Positions 1,642-25,921 of a DNA stretch of 64,000 nt are shown one piece after another. How positions within the stretch are numbered: the stretch's first letter is position 1; each line of letters begins with the position of its first letter. The stretch lies in the IMG/VR virus record IMGVR_UViG_3300037418_000950; one strand, written 5' to 3'. The stretch is from a virus. Taxonomy: Duplodnaviria; Heunggongvirae; Uroviricota; Caudoviricetes. Both the position numbers and the translations under genes were made by a program. The notes beneath the pieces are model-generated. The model had not been told where the DNA came from. It did no database searches and was given only the letters and a program-made list of their open reading frames with translations.

Positions 1642-1826
1642 TTCGCGACCGCTATTTTCATAGCTTCTGTTTCGAAGTGTTCATAGTATTGGATAGCCGC
1701 CTCTAAGCGAGTCGTATTGACTCCCCCAGCCACCCCAGGTCCCCCAAGACCAGTGTTGTGAACCTTCATAAGGTCAAGCACGGCCCGTGCAGTCTCGATT
1801 AGTAGTCGTGATTCAGGTCCGTTCAT
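1638..1826 (-). CDS. hypothetical protein
   Basis: 62 aa ORF in a tight co-oriented array. Confidence 0.35.
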   Translation of the reverse strand: MNGPESRLLIETARAVLDLMKVHNTGLGGPGVAGGVNTTRLEAAIQYYEHFETEAMKIAVAK

Positions 1827-2011
1827 TTATTCACCTCTACAAGAAACCCATTACTGACTTTAAGATATCCAGTTTCGATAAGGTCTTCGATAATGGAGTG
1901 TTCGCGCACGGTCCATTCGCCATAATAATTGAGACCATCGAACAAATTGGCATATTGGACTAGTGACTGAACGGCATCCCCAGATACACTCATGCGAATG
2001 CTACTCCCCAA
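1823..2011 (-). CDS. hypothetical protein
   Basis: 62 aa ORF with TTG start; 4-nt overlap with the downstream ORF. Confidence 0.3.
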   Translation of the reverse strand: MGSSIRMSVSGDAVQSLVQYANLFDGLNYYGEWTVREHSIIEDLIETGYLKVSNGFLVEVNK

Positions 2012-8514: not shown

Positions 8515-8997
8515 CTAATGTTCTGAATTTGAATTTCGATATTCGTATAATTGTCGGTCATAATCGATAAATACTACTTCGGGATGTTCTCGGCAGTATT
8601 TAGCGATTTCAGCGAACGACATTTGCTTGAGGTCATTGAGTTCGGTTAGAGACCCATATTTCTTGTCGTCAAACTGAATATAGCCACCAAACATGCCGTT
8701 GGGTTGACGAAGATTCAATGCTTTCTGGACAACAAACGGAAGCACGCTGACCAATACGTCGTCATAAACATCGACACGCGAACCGAACCCGACTATTGTG
8801 CTATTATCAGTGCTCTGAGTGTCAACCCGAGTGAGATTGAGTGGCTTCTCAAGAACCACACAGGCCCGTCCGAGACAGCAAAAGCTTTCAACACCATTCT
8901 TGCGATAGAGAACGCCAATCGCTTGCTTGGCATCCGTCGTTTCCAAGTCGCGAAGCCAAGCTTCCTGATGTTCGTTGAATTTGTACTTGAACCCCAT
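8515..8997 (-). CDS. hypothetical protein, distant member of the 'FCCLG' paralog family
   Basis: 160 aa; FCCLGRACVV block resembles FCCLGVACD of the tandem family at 23995-25720. Confidence 0.45.
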   Translation of the reverse strand: MGFKYKFNEHQEAWLRDLETTDAKQAIGVLYRKNGVESFCCLGRACVVLEKPLNLTRVDTQSTDNSTIVGFGSRVDVYDDVLVSVLPFVVQKALNLRQPNGMFGGYIQFDDKKYGSLTELNDLKQMSFAEIAKYCREHPEVVFIDYDRQLYEYRNSNSEH

Positions 8998-9476: not shown

Positions 9477-9854
9477 TCAAGTAAATTGTAACTCGTACTC
9501 TTTGGCTACCCTATCGAAGCCAACATGCCACTGAGACACCCCGCAGTTATCGTGAATGTCTTGTAGCCGTCGCAAAAGATCATAAATTCTAGGACGTTTC
9601 ATATAGAGGTCCTGCCCTAGAGTATTCAGAATAACGTCTTTCACTAACATCCTGTGTTCAAATGCTGGTTTATATTTTTCGTCGGGAATAACTTGCCCTA
9701 TCGCGCATTTGAGGACCGTGCCATCGTTTTTGAAACGTCGATACAAACAAAGCCCGAAAGAATCCGCCGATCTTTCGTTCTGTTTCAACAATTCTTTGGT
9801 GATGAAGTCAAAGATAACTTGGGCAGTAGCTTCGTTGAGGTTAGGTGCTTTCAT
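9477..9854 (-). CDS. hypothetical protein (paralog A of tandem pair)
   Basis: 125 aa; shares the pattern IFDFI..L..Q.ERS...C.YR...C..G...PD..Y...FEL with the adjacent gene. Confidence 0.45.
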   Translation of the reverse strand: MKAPNLNEATAQVIFDFITKELLKQNERSADSFGLCLYRRFKNDGTVLKCAIGQVIPDEKYKPAFEHRMLVKDVILNTLGQDLYMKRPRIYDLLRRLQDIHDNCGVSQWHVGFDRVAKEYELQFT

Positions 9855-9857
9855 TTC

Positions 9858-10298
9858 TCATGGTCCTTTGTATTCAAGTTCGAACTTACTCGCGACGCGT
9901 CGCCAGTGTTCTTCCCAACAGTCTATGGCGACGGCATCGTGAACTTCCTGCATTTTTTTTAGTAGTCGCAGTTTGGCGTAGTGTTTTCGGTATATTTCAA
10001 AATCGTTCCCCAAGAAGCGCGGCGCAACGTTCGCCGCCAATACGCTTATTTTTTCTATGGATGGATTATAGTTTGCATCGGGAAGGCAGCACCCCGCGGC
10101 GCATCGGAGAATTTCGCCAGTCGGTTTTTCATACCGATAGCGACACTCAAAGAAGGGTTCCATTTTTCCGTCTATGTTGACCTTCTCTATCATGACGCCC
10201 GATCTTTCTCCTTGCGTTCGAAGAAAGCCGCAGATGTAATCGAAGATCGTTTGTAGATCGGCTTCGACTAGGTTTGGGGGATTATATTCTTGTCGCAT
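9858..10298 (-). CDS. hypothetical protein (paralog B of tandem pair)
   Basis: 146 aa; paralog of 9477..9854 (IFDYICGF...ERS...RYRY...CAAGCCLPD...FELEY). Confidence 0.45.
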   Translation of the reverse strand: MRQEYNPPNLVEADLQTIFDYICGFLRTQGERSGVMIEKVNIDGKMEPFFECRYRYEKPTGEILRCAAGCCLPDANYNPSIEKISVLAANVAPRFLGNDFEIYRKHYAKLRLLKKMQEVHDAVAIDCWEEHWRRVASKFELEYKGP

Positions 10299-22682: not shown

Positions 22683-22711
22683 AGTATACCATATTACAGT
22701 ACAATAATCAA
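22683..22711 (-). promoter_or_regulatory. sigma70-like promoter upstream of the tRNA-Asn-like/tRNA-Ala pair
   Basis: Minus strand TTGATT-N17-TATACT; the -35 overlaps the HNH gene stop codon. Confidence 0.45.
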
Positions 22712-23145
22712 GGTAGTTGTTTCCATGCGGAACCACAACGAATATCAAGAACAGTACCTTTCGTAACCTTATATTTTTCGGATAATTCTGCGGCAGACAA
22801 AGAACTATATTTTATGGCATATGCGTCGTCATAAGAGAGTATCCTTTTTTTAAATCGACCTTTGGATACACAATCCTTCACATTATCTAAATGTGTTCCG
22901 AGGAATAAATGCTTGGGGTTTACACATAGAGGATTATCACATTCATGGCATACCAACAACTTTCCAGGTTCAATCCCATAATGTAGAACGTATGAAAATC
23001 TATGCACTCGGTAGTGTTTATTCTGAACGGTCCAAATTTCCCCGTAATCCCGCCCGTTCGTTCCACCTAACCAATTCCAACACTCATTCTCACCACGTTT
23101 ATCAACTCGTGACCAAAATCGTGTGATATATTTTTCTTCAATCAT
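22708..23145 (-). CDS. HNH homing endonuclease
   Basis: 145 aa; ECWNWLGG...GYG...HR..Y.......VCHECDNPLCVNPKHLFLGT matches the HNH_3 family. Confidence 0.8.
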   Translation of the reverse strand: MIEEKYITRFWSRVDKRGENECWNWLGGTNGRDYGEIWTVQNKHYRVHRFSYVLHYGIEPGKLLVCHECDNPLCVNPKHLFLGTHLDNVKDCVSKGRFKKRILSYDDAYAIKYSSLSAAELSEKYKVTKGTVLDIRCGSAWKQLP

Positions 23146-23159
23146 GAAATAAAAAATCC

Positions 23160-23786
23160 TTAAATAATACTCAAATTATCGACCCATTCTTGTTTCAGGT
23201 CTTTTCCCCCAAATGCGTTCAAATCAATTGCATTACCTGTAATACCCTTGACGCCATGAGGCGCAGGGCCGACACCGTCGCCCGTGTATTGCCAGAGCCA
23301 ATAGGTATGCCAGCCCACGGGAAGGGTCGCCTTAGGCCCATATTGGGGCATCCACAGCCTATGTGAGGCCAGGAATGGATCGGCGGTTTTGCCAAGTTTT
23401 TCTTTCAACAGACTGCCGCCATAGAGCTTCGGCTTCTGGCCTGTCTTGTCGCGCACCAATTGCAGGAATTGCTTGGCTTGCGCGAGACTCATGGTGCCCT
23501 TGGTGTTTTCTTCGAAGTCCAGGGCTAAGAGTGTCGTGCCATCGGGATCGGCATAGTCGAGAAAATAATTGACTTGCGCTTCGACAGGTCCCGAATGACA
23601 AAAATGATAAGCACCCCACAATAGACCGTTATCCAAGGCCCATTGACGGCGTGCTTTGTAAGTCGCGTCTTTGTAGTAGGTGCCTTCAGTAGCCTTGTGA
23701 ATGATGCCTCGAATGCCAGCATCATAAACGGCCTTCATGTCGGTGACTTGATTGTGGTGAGATAGATCGGTAACGAGAGGTATCAT
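23160..23786 (-). CDS. GH25 muramidase (endolysin)
   Basis: 208 aa; DLSHHNQ...GIRGIIHKATEGTYYKD N-terminal signature of glycoside hydrolase family 25 lysozymes. Confidence 0.8.
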   Translation of the reverse strand: MIPLVTDLSHHNQVTDMKAVYDAGIRGIIHKATEGTYYKDATYKARRQWALDNGLLWGAYHFCHSGPVEAQVNYFLDYADPDGTTLLALDFEENTKGTMSLAQAKQFLQLVRDKTGQKPKLYGGSLLKEKLGKTADPFLASHRLWMPQYGPKATLPVGWHTYWLWQYTGDGVGPAPHGVKGITGNAIDLNAFGGKDLKQEWVDNLSII

Positions 23787-23816
23787 AGGCGGTTCCTTAG
23801 TAGGTTTACCGCCTAT

Positions 23817-24002
23817 TTAGTCAATATTTTCAAATTCCACTATGCCATTGCTTTTTACTTGCAACAAACATCGGCGAACCGCTGCCCTAATAACACCAGT
23901 TCTGGTACTATTGAGAGACTTTGCAACTTTGTCTATTTCCGCGATCATTTCATTAGATAACCAAAGAGGAATTTGAGACATTCCTTCGCGCTTTTTAGGC
24001 AT
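23817..24002 (-). CDS. ribbon-helix-helix (CopG/Arc-like) DNA-binding protein
   Basis: 61 aa; IPLWLSNEMIAEIDKVAK...RTGVIRAAVRRCL fits an RHH beta-strand plus two helices. Confidence 0.5.
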   Translation of the reverse strand: MPKKREGMSQIPLWLSNEMIAEIDKVAKSLNSTRTGVIRAAVRRCLLQVKSNGIVEFENID

Positions 24003-24411
24003 CGTTGATCAGCCCCTCAGGTTCGGTTTCGATGATATCAGCTATTTCGTTGAAGTCCGTGCCGCTATCGTTGACCGAGGTCAGAGCAACCGTTGGATAG
24101 GGACCATAGTATCCGCAGTTGGTTCGGAGCCCGAGCCAATCCCTGACTTCATCGGGAAGGATATTGCTAATCTGGTTACGCGTGCTATCGGGGTCTTCGC
24201 CGTCTTCAAGTTCGCGATACACAAAATATTCGCCTTCCCATTGGACGAACTTCGGCGCATCACCTGATTTCATCCAAAGGTCACAGGCGACTCCGAGACA
24301 ACAGAATCCATCTTCATAACGAAGTTGACTCGTTGCCTGTTTGTAGTCCCCCGACCGCAAGGCATCGATCCAGAGCTTGCGGTGTTCCTTCTGTTGTTCC
24401 TTAGTCCACAT
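23995..24411 (-). CDS. 'FCCLG' family small acidic protein, paralog 1
   Basis: 138 aa; W..EQQ..HR.LWI.ALRSG.Y.Q...LR...GFCCLGVACD...SGD...DWLGL...NDSG..F..IADIIE.EP..LI shared by four tandem genes. Confidence 0.55.
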   Translation of the reverse strand: MWTKEQQKEHRKLWIDALRSGDYKQATSQLRYEDGFCCLGVACDLWMKSGDAPKFVQWEGEYFVYRELEDGEDPDSTRNQISNILPDEVRDWLGLRTNCGYYGPYPTVALTSVNDSGTDFNEIADIIETEPEGLINDA

Positions 24412-24862
24412 TGCGAATCAACTTTTTCGGTTCATCTTCAATAATATCGGCGATCTGTTTGAAGGTTTTGCCGCTGTCATTCAGGCCAGAAAGGGAATCG
24501 GAAGTATAAAACTTACCGTCAATCTTCTCACAGTTCCAATGGCTTTCTTCCACGGGTCTAAAATGCGTGCCAGAATCATCTTGAAGTCCAAGCCAATCCT
24601 TGACAGGCGCAGGAAGCACGGTCGCTATAAGACCTTCATCACCGCGCTTGTAACGGAAGAATTTATTGGTTTCCCATTTCGTTGTCTTTGAAGCATCGCC
24701 CGACTTGAGATACACGTCACAGGCAACCCCGAGACAACAGAAGCCGACATTGTCTCGCAAACATCCCATAGTTTGTTCGTATTCACCCGAACGAAGGGCT
24801 TTAACCCACATGCGGCGATGTAGAGCTTGTTCCTCAGGCGTCCACTTCTTGGTCATCTGCAA
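24401..24862 (-). CDS. 'FCCLG' family small acidic protein, paralog 2
   Basis: 153 aa; same conserved blocks; overlaps paralog 1 by 11 nt. Confidence 0.55.
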   Translation of the reverse strand: MQMTKKWTPEEQALHRRMWVKALRSGEYEQTMGCLRDNVGFCCLGVACDVYLKSGDASKTTKWETNKFFRYKRGDEGLIATVLPAPVKDWLGLQDDSGTHFRPVEESHWNCEKIDGKFYTSDSLSGLNDSGKTFKQIADIIEDEPKKLIRNVD

Positions 24863-25310
24863 TCAATCCTTTAGGTTCTTTCTCAACAATGTCGGCAATC
24901 TGGTTGAAAGTTTTCTTGCTGTGATCATTTTCGGAAATCAAAGTCGATCTTTTGCGATTAGTAAAGAACTCACCACAATTCGTTTTCAAACCAAGCCAGT
25001 CTGAGACTGGTTGTGGAAGCGATCCCGAAACGTAATAATCGTGATAATATCCTTCTTCACTTTTTACTTTTGTCCTAAACTGAAAACCGTGATCATGATC
25101 GAGACCAAGCCACTTCGCGACCTTGGGAGCATCCCCCGATTTCAGATAGACGTCACAGGCAACCCCGAGACAACAGAATTCAGGTTGGTCATCAAGATCA
25201 CTTAACTTTCGGAGCGCGCCCCTCGCCTGACTATAGTCGCCCGACCGTAGAGCTTTAATCCAAAGTTCTCTATGTGCCTTCTGTTCCTCAGGAGTCCATT
25301 TCTTGCTCAT
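24834..25310 (-). CDS. 'FCCLG' family small acidic protein, paralog 3
   Basis: 158 aa; same conserved blocks; overlaps paralog 2 by 29 nt. Confidence 0.55.
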   Translation of the reverse strand: MSKKWTPEEQKAHRELWIKALRSGDYSQARGALRKLSDLDDQPEFCCLGVACDVYLKSGDAPKVAKWLGLDHDHGFQFRTKVKSEEGYYHDYYVSGSLPQPVSDWLGLKTNCGEFFTNRKRSTLISENDHSKKTFNQIADIVEKEPKGLIADDQEVDA

Positions 25311-25720
25311 ATCAACAACCCCTCAGGTTCGGATTCAATAATGTCAGCAATCTTCTTGAACGGCATACCGCAGTCATTGTTGCTTACGAGACTGGTATTT
25401 TCATAATGGCCATTGCATGTTTTCAATCCCAACCAATCCATAACTGGTTGAGGCAATTCAACGTCGTCCGAATAAGGATCGCTATATTTTGGTTCGGCAA
25501 ATGCAAAAGAGTTGTCTTGCAACCAGTTCATATACTCAGGCGCATCCCCCGACTTGAGATACAAATCACAGGCGACTCCGAGGCAACAATAGCTAAATCC
25601 CTTATCGTCGGCGTTCGTAGATCGTAAGGTGCATTTGGTTTGCTTGTACTTGCGCGACCGTAGAGCTTCGATCCAGGCGCGACGATGCTCGGCCTGTTGT
25701 TCAGGTGTCCACTTACTCAT
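25307..25720 (-). CDS. 'FCCLG' family small acidic protein, paralog 4
   Basis: Start taken at internal Met (MSKWTPEQQAEHRRAWIEALRS...) by family alignment; ATGA overlap with paralog 3. Confidence 0.5.
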   Translation of the reverse strand: MSKWTPEQQAEHRRAWIEALRSRKYKQTKCTLRSTNADDKGFSYCCLGVACDLYLKSGDAPEYMNWLQDNSFAFAEPKYSDPYSDDVELPQPVMDWLGLKTCNGHYENTSLVSNNDCGMPFKKIADIIESEPEGLLI

Positions 25721-25812
25721 GATATACCTTTTGAGAGAAAAATATGAGCATCCCCCGACCACGAATGCCCCCATGCCACACGCGAATAGATTTGTGGCCA
25801 TCCACCAGATCG

Positions 25813-25828
25813 GATCAATACGTTGATC
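25813..25828. promoter_or_regulatory. perfect 16-bp palindrome in leader of the paralog operon (candidate operator)
   Basis: GATCAATACGTTGATC between the consensus promoter and the first paralog. Confidence 0.35.
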
Positions 25829-25884
25829 CTATTTGATACCAAGGGGGATTACTGACACTCCCCGCGATTGGTTCAATGTTGCGA

Positions 25885-25914
25885 ATTATAGTTTAATTTT
25901 AGGTAGTTTGTCAA
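25885..25914 (-). promoter_or_regulatory. consensus sigma70 promoter driving the paralog operon
   Basis: Minus strand TTGACA-N18-TATAAT (both hexamers perfect). Confidence 0.55.
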
Positions 25915-25921
25915 CTACTTT

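Follow-up and report, generated by a model that had tools for sequence, protein, structure and literature searches.

A DUF8296 paralog array behind a sigma-70-type promoter and a conserved leader in a large lytic phage

Aca14 is an anti-CRISPR-associated repressor of the ribbon-helix-helix (RHH) type and provides a precedent for an RHH regulator that ends an early operon; its repeat overlaps the -10, and Aca2 binds a promoter repeat as well as hairpins in the 5' UTR (PMC13551039). An operon in a 64,000-nucleotide stretch of DNA from a tailed phage (IMG/VR record IMGVR_UViG_3300037418_000950; here called the window) resembles such acr-aca loci in its strong early promoter, its small cargo of unseen fold, the gene for a small protein of DNA-binding type at its 3' end and its inverted repeats both in the promoter region (here over the -35) and in the 5' UTR. 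It differs in its cargo, which consists of DUF8296 proteins unrelated to any known Acr, in the position of the repeats, which lie over the -35 and far downstream and not over the -10 as with Aca14, and in its RHH regulator, which does not recur with the cargo family from genome to genome. No homologue of the RHH protein could be detected, and it is set beside Aca14 by description only. The acr-aca architecture proposed in an earlier note on this DNA is retained for the small RHH-like gene at the 3' end, but the cargo shows no likeness to solved anti-defence proteins, and regulator and cargo show no recurrent association. The analogy is partly supported, and an anti-defence reading of the array is plausible but speculative. 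The sponges Tad1, Tad2 and Acb2 offer a further analogy, as they are, like DUF8296, small, soluble and restricted to phages of very different hosts, with strongly conserved ligand-contacting residues.

On the minus strand the unit runs from a sigma-70-type promoter through a leader, four DUF8296 paralogs (W1 to W4) and the RHH gene to a GH25 endolysin gene (Table 1). This transcription unit is genuine and belongs to a large lytic phage that carries tRNAs; that it is early is inferred from the promoter type alone. Neighbouring reading frames of the array overlap by 4, 29 and 11 nt, and the RHH gene overlaps W4 by 8 nt; the 29 nt shared by W2 and W3 shrink to 23 if W3 begins at the ATG at 24856 (151 aa, as in the public gene call) instead of the TTG at 24862 (153 aa). 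Every start in the operon is preceded by a Shine-Dalgarno-like motif, and the four paralogs are translationally coupled. A 164-aa form of W1 starting at 25801 was rejected because GGTGG lies directly against its ATG, because indels shift the frame in relatives, and because public calls give 137 aa. The operon described before, with four overlapping paralogs and then the RHH gene and the endolysin gene behind a real promoter, could be confirmed, as could the endolysin that follows directly (Glyco_hydro_25 8e-30, 104.9 bits against a cut-off of 27). The array is placed in a replication/nucleotide-metabolism arm, with glutaredoxin and glycosyltransferase genes on one side, RNase H on the other and ribonucleotide reductase nearby. 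A DNA similarity search against isolated phages gave no match.

Table 1. Features of the DUF8296 locus and of the separate fifth copy (positions in the window).
Feature	Position	Strand	Basis
Inverted repeat GTAGTT-N4-AACTAC, centred on -35	25903..25918	.	6-nt arms, 100% complementary
Sigma-70-type promoter	25885..25914	-	TTGACA 25909-25914, 18-nt spacer, TATAAT 25885-25890
Untranslated leader	25721..25884	-	About 160 nt; about 125-140 nt without the 22-nt insert; nucleotide-level conservation
22-nt indel GGATCAACGTATTGATCCGATC	25808..25829	-	Holds the 7+4+7 repeat and three GATC sites
Leader helix GCCAC(A)...(U)GUGGC	25775..25798	-	Repeat search and RNAalifold
Leader hairpin GGGCAUUC-N9-GGAUGCUC, then U-rich tract	25746..25770	-	Just before the first ribosome-binding site
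DUF8296 paralog W1, 137 aa, position-1 type	25307..25720	-	phrog_18067 2e-18; PF26948 recorded; clusters with S1, T1, U1
DUF8296 paralog W2, 158 aa	24834..25310	-	phrog_18067 3e-15; clusters with R1 of L007
DUF8296 paralog W3	24401..24862	-	phrog_18067 6e-20; groups near the S2/T2/U2 cluster
DUF8296 paralog W4, 138 aa, pI 4.3	23995..24411	-	phrog_18067 6e-21; clusters with R2
RHH protein, 61 aa	23817..24002	-	Weak RHH profile matches and AF2 beta-alpha-alpha
Hairpin ATAGGCGGU-N14-ACCGCCUAU	23785..23816	-	Endolysin Shine-Dalgarno in the loop; start-codon A and U in the stem
GH25 endolysin, last conserved gene of the block	23160..23786	-	Pfam Glyco_hydro_25 and phrog_6219 endolysin
Fifth, divergent DUF8296 copy, 160 aa, 15 kb from the array	8515..8997	-	hmmsearch 3e-15; hhalign probability 98.7%

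The family of the paralogs, which had been called unassignable, is PF26948 (DUF8296), recorded for all four, and also phrog_18067, which matches them at 3e-15 to 6e-21 over profile positions 3-127 of 129. With a Pfam set lacking the PF26948 model, with NCBIfam and with PADLOC, which covers defence systems and not counter-defence proteins, no match was obtained. The four proteins are 50-61% identical in pairs and share the motif blocks quoted earlier and the motifs of the family (W..ALRSG.Y.Q, FCCLGV.CD, LP..V..WLGL and ND.G..F..IA..IE). The acidic C-termini ascribed to them are clear for two of the four and not for the other two (pI 4.9, 6.0, 6.3 and 4.3). DUF8296 comprises at least 47,000 clusters at 50% identity (47,054 with E<=1e-3), and more than 556 loci were found in IMG/VR contigs. 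Some members stand beside terminase, tail fibre or integrase genes in a prophage setting, and practically the whole family is found in phages and prophages, whose hosts are very diverse. Among 50,697 genomes of isolated phages no more than about 12 have a member, and this near absence from cultured phages accounts for its being unstudied. Full-text literature searches for DUF8296, PF26948 and phrog_18067 returned no paper. The family has no characterised member, and membership explains nothing about function.

DUF8296 is a stand-alone domain of about 120 aa with two strongly variable insert regions and a near-invariant core (R19-S20-G-x-Y23-x-Q25, C37-C38-L-G-V-x-C43-D/E, N114-D115 and E128). 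Among 234 members S20, C37, C38, L39, G40, V41, C43, N114, D115 and F120 are conserved to 99-100%, and all ten are present in W1 to W4; neither a conserved histidine nor a fourth metal ligand was found in the same set. W4 was used for structure prediction (AF2, pLDDT 94.4). The predicted fold is confident and matches nothing solved: comparison by sequence and fold with PDB chains, including solved Acr, Tad and Acb proteins, revealed no relative, and a BFVD search returned uncharacterised viral proteins only. Neither these structures nor the defence systems of PADLOC linked the paralogs to known anti-defence proteins. Proteins with two or three DUF8296 domains exist. Fusions to other domains were rejected: what looked like N-terminal extensions is non-coding sequence upstream of the genes, and the fusions that remain join DUF8296 to DUF8296. 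Unrelated phages also have tandem arrays, of up to six copies, and the genes mostly sit among small ORFs without assigned function. Across 80 loci no neighbour gene is conserved (best neighbour cluster 9/80); a metallophosphatase was dismissed as a recurrent neighbour, since it occurs at only 7 of 128 loci.

A fifth copy in the window, absent from the earlier note, keeps the CC...C and ND motifs and the F, and has lost RSG (S20 included), Y and W. The ORFs 9477-9854 and 9858-10298 were considered as distant members and rejected (hhalign probability 0.2%).

In five related lineages the array is found at the same place with 2-5 copies per genome; more distant relatives of the phage have no array at all. 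Copies from the same position in different phages cluster together, and the array draws on at least six old paralog types, which keep a fixed order and of which copies are gained and lost through recombination between conserved gene ends. The strain L134 shares 96-97% identity with the window and has one paralog more; this additional protein agrees with W4 in its first 21 and its last 5 residues. The paralogs are the fastest-evolving genes locally (dN 0.08-0.16 versus 0.007-0.053 for flanking genes). They had been called diversifying and a comparison of dN/dS had been suggested; the ratio rises from 0.09-0.36 in the core to 0.28-0.92 in the variable inserts and is below 1 everywhere, so positive selection is not demonstrated.

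The consensus promoter proposed before proved to be the sole 12/12 match in the 64-kb window (0.05 expected), and its hexamers are identical in the lineages L007, L122/L123 and L126. In L133 the DNA upstream has been replaced, and TTGACT-N17-TATAAT is still there. Across the five lineages the spacer is 17 or 18 nt long and variable in sequence; the hexamers are kept while the upstream DNA changes. Centred on the -35 lies an inverted repeat that went unmentioned in the earlier note. It is unique in the window (0.06 expected) and perfect only there, with 4 of 6 positions kept in related lineages, and we regard it as a candidate RHH operator.

The sequence in the leader reported as a perfect 16-bp palindrome is GATCAA-CGTA-TTGATC with a non-symmetric centre and is symmetric at 12 of 16 positions; the actual repeat is GGATCAA-N4-TTGATCC (25812-25829, 7-bp arms). 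It is part of a 22-nt indel that is present in the window and in L007 and cleanly missing from L122, L123, L126 and L133. The sequence of the indel is unique in the window, as is its grouping of three GATC sites in about 20 nt. The repeat lies within the transcribed leader, 57-74 nt past the -10 and some 90 nt before the first start codon, and overlaps neither promoter nor ribosome-binding site. Three related lineages without the indel still have an intact promoter and array, and the reading of this repeat as a palindromic operator was not supported.

The RHH assignment of the small gene holds for the 61-aa ORF and its RHH-like topology, but the profile scores are weak. RHH_1 reached 18.6 bits, below the Pfam cut-off of 20.5; the CopG-like phrog_7325 matched at 2e-4 and NCBIfam aCcr1 at 9e-5, far under its cut-off, with further weak matches to BrnA and to YiiF (PDB 2k5j). 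Single-sequence AF2 (pLDDT 73) predicted a strand at residues 8-12 and helices at 17-29 and 35-52. This beta-alpha-alpha prediction and the weak matches are the likeness to CopG/Arc/MetJ repressors; unlike them, the protein falls below the gathering threshold and is an orphan by sequence, and its DNA binding is putative. Homologues elsewhere were not found, the only matches coming from copies of the gene itself in near-identical strains. The gene is missing from all 128 other DUF8296 loci (0/128), so the family does not travel with this regulator. The window has both the RHH gene and the leader repeat, L007 has the repeat and a 26-nt remnant of the gene, and L122/L123, L126 and L133 have neither. 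An uncoupling of the repeat from the RHH gene was rejected after the remnant had been found. According to the flanking-gene tree (L007,(window,(L122,L126))) both features were probably present in the ancestor and disappeared together on a single branch; their co-occurrence in the available lineages is a single evolutionary event.

The leader (125-150 nt) is the best-conserved DNA of the neighbourhood, with 86-92% identity to relatives, where flanking genes reach 74-83% and the DUF8296 genes 63-71%. A coding role is excluded because indels break every reading frame. RNAalifold supported one helix with two compensatory pairs in L007 (GTCGC with GCGAC), a covariation that is minimal because only five lineages are available. 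The hairpin further downstream has a stem of 7-8 bp with a U-rich tract beginning about 3-4 nt after it; it may be an attenuator or the 3' end of an sRNA. A terminator scan of the window did not call this hairpin. An Rfam search of the leader gave no match, and its folding energy is unexceptional (z-scores -1.1 to +0.8). In L126 the same promoter and leader stand before a different ORF, and in L133 homology to the other lineages starts at about the -10 box. Three leader blocks searched against IMG/VR and a metagenome collection matched only the L007 contig, apart from two chance matches inside coding regions.

Two of the explanations to be weighed concern the control of the array. That the unit is an acr-aca-type operon in which the RHH protein represses the promoter through the GATCAA...TTGATC repeat as operator appears quite unlikely. 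The 7+4+7 arrangement places the half-site centres 11 bp apart, a spacing suited to dimeric DNA binders. The shared distribution of RHH gene and repeat, with their probable joint ancestry and joint loss, also speaks for such a pairing, and the RHH-type Aca14 and the binding of Aca2 to a promoter repeat and 5' UTR hairpins are precedents (PMC13551039). Yet the repeat is imperfect and lies off both promoter and ribosome-binding site, the common distribution is one event, the repeat is intact in L007 without a functional RHH gene, the 128 other loci lack the regulator, and the cargo could not be linked to known Acr or anti-defence proteins. It is likewise quite improbable, though compatible with the other explanations, that the promoter mainly produces the leader as a small non-coding RNA or attenuator and that the DUF8296 genes are expressed by regulated read-through. 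The exceptional conservation of a leader that cannot be coding, the compensated helix, the hairpin with its U-rich tract ahead of the first ribosome-binding site, the different ORF in L126 and the start of homology in L133 are consistent with such an RNA. Against it stand the missing Rfam match, the ordinary z-scores, the absence of the hairpin from the terminator calls and the minimal covariation over five lineages, and the conservation could instead come from protein binding to the DNA.

For the paralogs themselves, the explanation that we consider best, and hold tentatively, is an early array of host-directed accessory effectors with an add-on RHH autorepressor and leader control. The proteins would be made immediately after infection and act against the host in takeover or counter-defence. 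A putative invariant Cys/Asn-Asp pocket may give them a chemistry in common, whether the binding of a ligand or metal or a thiol-dependent reaction, and the variable loops could provide each paralog with a separate partner; the natural two- and three-domain fusions suggest that the domains work side by side. The RHH protein would most likely repress the array promoter, and the leader may form a second, RHH-independent layer of control. The invariant polar residues over tens of thousands of clusters would, however, be expected of an enzyme or cofactor protein no less than of a set of inhibitors. That DUF8296 proteins are small enzymes or cofactor- or metal-binding proteins for phage nucleotide or DNA metabolism, DNA modification or redox, and not inhibitors of host factors, is unlikely. 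C37, C38, C43, D/E44, N114, D115, R19, S20, Y23, Q25 and E128 resemble an active or ligand site, the array lies near ribonucleotide reductase in the replication/nucleotide-metabolism arm, and neighbours in other phages include thymidylate synthase, DNA polymerase III alpha, methyltransferases and metallophosphatases; but no neighbour is conserved, as the counts of 9/80 and 7/128 indicate, a conserved histidine or fourth metal ligand is missing, and the fifth copy is maintained despite the loss of RSG and Y. Divergent multi-copy arrays, copy-number polymorphism between strains and the highest local dN would also be unusual for metabolic enzymes. Since the endolysin gene of this phage lineage always directly follows the array, the paralogs might also be accessory lysis factors, for example endolysin regulators or chaperones. 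The order of array and GH25 gene is kept in all five lineages, and the endolysin start appears to be controlled by a conserved hairpin, which is 100% paired in four lineages and shows one compensatory G-C to A-U change in L007. The paralog sequences have no visible membrane segments, outside this lineage DUF8296 is not beside lysis genes, and more distant relatives lack the array altogether, which makes a role in lysis highly improbable. Extending the effector explanation to the whole family, DUF8296 arrays could represent a new, extremely widespread class of counter-defence or takeover effectors with an unprecedented fold, in which a common Cys/Asn-Asp pocket is combined with hypervariable inserts that set the targets, cassettes are shuffled, an early promoter and a new leader RNA govern expression and, in this lineage, an orphan RHH repressor adjusts it; we view this proposal with considerable doubt.

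DUF8296 is among the larger protein families without known function, and the locus adds to it a conserved promoter and leader, ordered paralog types, copy-number polymorphism between strains and a lineage-specific RHH gene. It is a clean experimental entry point, with a defined promoter, a conserved leader, four divergent copies (five in the sister strain) and natural variants of 2-5 copies, and it also offers a candidate regulator and two candidate binding sites. Should the paralogs neutralise host factors, the family would be a large and new class of phage effectors whose fold is also new; should they be enzymes, they would point to a widespread metabolic step of phages that has so far gone unrecognised. 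Independently of function, strains of about 96% identity that gain and lose paralogs like cassettes illustrate how accessory loci of phages evolve.

All genes of the array region lie on the minus strand, and the window covers the arm of a large phage that serves replication and nucleotide metabolism; it encodes also a DNA polymerase, a DnaB-like helicase, a UvsX-like recombinase, a ribonucleotide reductase, RNase H, PhoH and seven tRNAs. A search against isolated phages revealed no DNA similarity to the window. A group-1 glycosyltransferase and a glutaredoxin gene are located upstream of the array. Within the 64 kb of the window, only the perfect promoter proposed in an earlier, model-made note on this DNA agrees with the sigma-70 consensus at 12/12 positions (shuffled sequences give 0.05). 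The four tandem paralogs (W1 to W4, with W1 next to the promoter) were likewise recovered; they share 50-61% pairwise identity and overlap by 4 nt, 23 or 29 nt, and 11 nt, the 29-nt overlap of the note becoming 23 nt with the start at 24856. The proposed acidic character is clear for two of the four (pI 4.9, 6.0, 6.3 and 4.3; family median 4.9) but not for the others. A small ORF resembling ribbon-helix-helix (RHH) proteins follows, and the endolysin gene downstream of it was verified by its GH25 domain.

Coordinates of the features of the array region and of the leader in related lineages
Feature	Position	Strand	Remarks
Sigma-70 promoter TTGACA-N18-TATAAT	25914-25885	-	12/12 consensus match
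Inverted repeat GTAGTT-N4-AACTAC	25903-25918		centred on the -35 hexamer; unique in window
Leader	25721-25884	-	~160 nt, promoter to first start codon
22-nt leader insert	25808-25829		three GATC sites
Leader inverted repeat GGATCAA-N4-TTGATCC	25812-25829		within the 22-nt insert
DUF8296 paralog W1	25720-25307	-	137 aa
DUF8296 paralog W2	25310-24834	-	158 aa
DUF8296 paralog W3	24856 or 24862-24401	-	151 or 153 aa
DUF8296 paralog W4	24411-23995	-	138 aa
RHH gene	24002-23817	-	61-aa ORF; 8-nt overlap with W4
Endolysin-start hairpin	23785-23816	-	9 bp, ATAGGCGGU-N14-ACCGCCUAU
GH25 endolysin	23786-23160	-	domain match 8e-30; 30-nt gap after RHH gene
Fifth, divergent DUF8296 gene	8515-8997	-	160 aa; hmmsearch 3e-15, hhalign probability 98.7%
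Leader in relatives	L007 115-268; L122 5863-6003; L126 4406-4530; L133 ~1750-1896		

The paralogs had been described as unassignable, but they belong to a catalogued family, Pfam DUF8296 (PF26948) and phrog_18067, both entries without functional annotation; a literature search for these three names found no paper mentioning any of them. When 1.84 billion representative proteins were searched with a profile, 47,054 clusters matched at E<=1e-3, and 34,682 still did so at E<=1e-10. IMG/VR contains more than 556 DUF8296 loci, and a strict-motif scan of 185,579 species genomes revealed 27, from Actinomycetota to Saccharibacteria; the examined ones belong to prophages and have genes for a terminase, tail fibre or integrase close by. 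Among 50,697 genomes of isolated phages only about 12 carry the family, namely the Alteromonas AD45 phages, Synechococcus B3 and B23, Ralstonia RSP15, Tunturi_3, Slicko01 and ppBjS10J-1. Unrelated phages have tandem arrays too, with six copies at one locus and five at another; Synechococcus B23 has five copies, and about one third of 85 loci contain two or more. The domain stands alone, its sole fusions being chains of two or three DUF8296 domains (P0121 with 377 aa, P0122, P0124 and P0132), hinting at domains that work next to one another.

In an alignment of 234 members C37, C38, L39, G40, V41, N114, D115 and F120 are 100% conserved, S20, L18, L30, C43 and A124 reach 99%, and R19, Y23, Q25, W14, W92 and E128 93-98%, whereas residues ~50-85 and ~96-110 vary in sequence and length. 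This combination of an invariant polar and Cys-rich constellation with hypervariable inserts suggests that the members share a binding or catalytic site but differ in its specificity. A fifth copy of the family, absent from the earlier note, is located 15 kb from the array; it retains CC...C, ND and F but no longer has RSG, Y and W, and gave no match to PHROG at 1e-5. The window contains in addition a separate tandem paralog pair (9477-9854 and 9858-10298, minus strand; 35% identity, E 1e-24) of another uncharacterised family, for which a relationship to DUF8296 was ruled out (hhalign probability 0.2%). Genes for Ser/Thr phosphatase-like metallophosphatases were observed at or near DUF8296 in several unrelated phages (L116 5389-6222, L127 2519-3232, L001 9100-9885, L017 7008-7709); this association is weak, because it applies to only 7 of 128 loci.

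The array is present at the same position in five related lineages, directly upstream of the genes for the GH25 endolysin, a 347-aa protein, a 120-aa protein and RNase H, but was not found in more distant relatives, whose glycosyltransferase is 40-46% identical.

Composition of the array locus in the window and its relatives
Phage	DUF8296 copies	RHH gene	22-nt leader insert
Window	4	present	present
L134 (96-97% identical strain)	at least 2 on contig	present	contig without leader region
L007	2	26-nt remnant	present
L122/L123	3	absent	absent
L126	3, two other ORFs before	absent	absent
L133	3, methyltransferase replaces upstream glycosyltransferase	absent	absent

In a neighbour-joining tree the copies (W, window; R, L007; S, T, U and X, other relatives) group by position and not by genome, namely W1/S1/T1/U1, W3 near S2/T2/U2, W2/R1, W4/X4/R2, S3/T3/U3 and X5 alone. 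By this grouping at least six paralog types are older than the split of these phages, with their order kept. The strain L134 carries an extra paralog (549-959; JGI 3300037466) between W4 and the RHH gene, which shares 44-54% identity with every other copy and has the same first 21 and last 5 residues as W4. These identical termini suggest insertion of a cassette by recombination between conserved gene ends.

A dN/dS comparison addressed the claim that the paralogs are diversifying. Between L122 and L126 the three orthologue pairs show dN of 0.077-0.156 and dN/dS of 0.16-0.42, compared with 0.007-0.053 and 0.03-0.18 for eight flanking genes, and the values within the proteins are 0.28-0.92 for the variable inserts and 0.09-0.36 for the core. 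Between the window and L122 the orthologues are 51-62% identical, the flanking proteins 80-92%. The array genes are therefore the fastest-evolving ones locally, yet under net purifying selection, and diversifying selection is suggested only.

Promoter and leader are the most conserved DNA of the locus, with 86-92% nucleotide identity versus 74-83% for the flanking genes. The leader is non-coding, as every reading frame is broken by indels; one of its helices shows two compensatory pairs in L007, and ahead of the first ribosome-binding site there is a hairpin with a U-rich tract after it. Its folding energies are unremarkable, and no Rfam family matched it. In L126 the shared promoter and leader stand before a different ORF. 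In L133 (1690-1760) homology to the other lineages starts at about the -10 box; the DNA upstream of it is unrelated and the gene there encodes an N6/N4 methyltransferase, yet a TTGACT-N17-TATAAT promoter is kept. The breakpoint of the recombination is apparently within the spacer of this promoter. The leader is probably functional in some way, with an sRNA, an attenuator or protein-binding DNA as candidates, and possibly represents a regulatory RNA of phages that has not been described before.

A second conserved element is the hairpin at the endolysin start. Its loop contains the Shine-Dalgarno sequence, and its stem takes in the A and U of the start codon; pairing is 100% in four lineages, L007 showing one compensatory change. 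The arrangement would be consistent with an early transcript from which the endolysin is translated with a delay. The slot just 3' of the endolysin gene is occupied differently in each lineage, by an HNH endonuclease in the window (22708-23145, minus strand), a GIY-YIG/NUMOD3 endonuclease in L126 (7324-7986), two unrelated ORFs in L122 (8181-8890) and no gene in L007, which looks like turnover of homing endonucleases. In the window two tRNA genes come after the HNH endonuclease gene.

The earlier note further proposed an anti-defence operon of the acr-aca type, in which the RHH protein would repress the promoter through a palindrome that follows it. The protein shows weak but consistent matches to RHH profiles and a predicted beta-alpha-alpha topology; beyond near-identical strains no homologue was found in 5.8 billion proteins (word-seeded search), in isolated phages or in the other DUF8296 loci searched. 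The palindrome is not a perfect one of 16 bp, since the centre of GATCAA-CGTA-TTGATC is non-symmetric; the real element is the longer interrupted repeat listed in the table. The insert containing it is the only place in the window with three GATC sites within ~20 nt, and GATC is overall not depleted (265 observed, 246 expected). At first sight L007, with the repeat and without the RHH gene, would disconnect the two, but this conclusion is too strong, as L007 keeps 26 nt of the 3' end of the gene (1143-1170, 24 of 26 identical), a remnant that shows an apparent loss by deletion. Together with the topology of the flanking genes, (L007,(window,(L122,L126))), the remnant indicates that RHH gene and insert were probably ancestral and lost together on the L122/L126/L133 branch. 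Gene and insert have the same distribution, yet a single event is no proof of a link.

As an operator the leader repeat is doubtful: it lies 57-74 nt downstream of the -10 box and ~90 nt upstream of the first ribosome-binding site, and promoter and array function evidently persist in lineages without it. The repeat overlapping the -35 hexamer, not described in the earlier note, is an alternative candidate, situated at the canonical location of an autorepressor site and perfect only in the RHH-bearing phage; its arms are 6 bp long, so that it may have arisen by chance. For comparison, the repeat of Aca14, an RHH-type Aca, overlaps the -10 box, unlike either repeat of the window, and Aca2 binds hairpins of the 5' UTR in addition to a repeat at the promoter (PMC13551039). 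An Aca-like role of the RHH protein is plausible. The protein is an add-on of this lineage and does not characterise the DUF8296 family, and of the acr-aca picture there remains only a possible role of the RHH gene in this lineage.

Taken together, the array locus is real and well organised, and its cargo is a catalogued, uncharacterised and very large phage family with a predicted fold that is unmatched. The early-type promoter, the confinement to phages, the ordered paralog repertoire, the cassette-like gain and loss and the substitution rate, the highest of the neighbourhood, are in keeping with an accessory role directed at the host, e.g. in counter-defence or takeover. An enzyme or cofactor protein would fit about equally well, in accordance with the invariant Cys/Asn-Asp site, and this analysis found no tie of the family to a known defence system. 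What the array offers is a promising object for experiments within a large uncharacterised family rather than a demonstrated new system.
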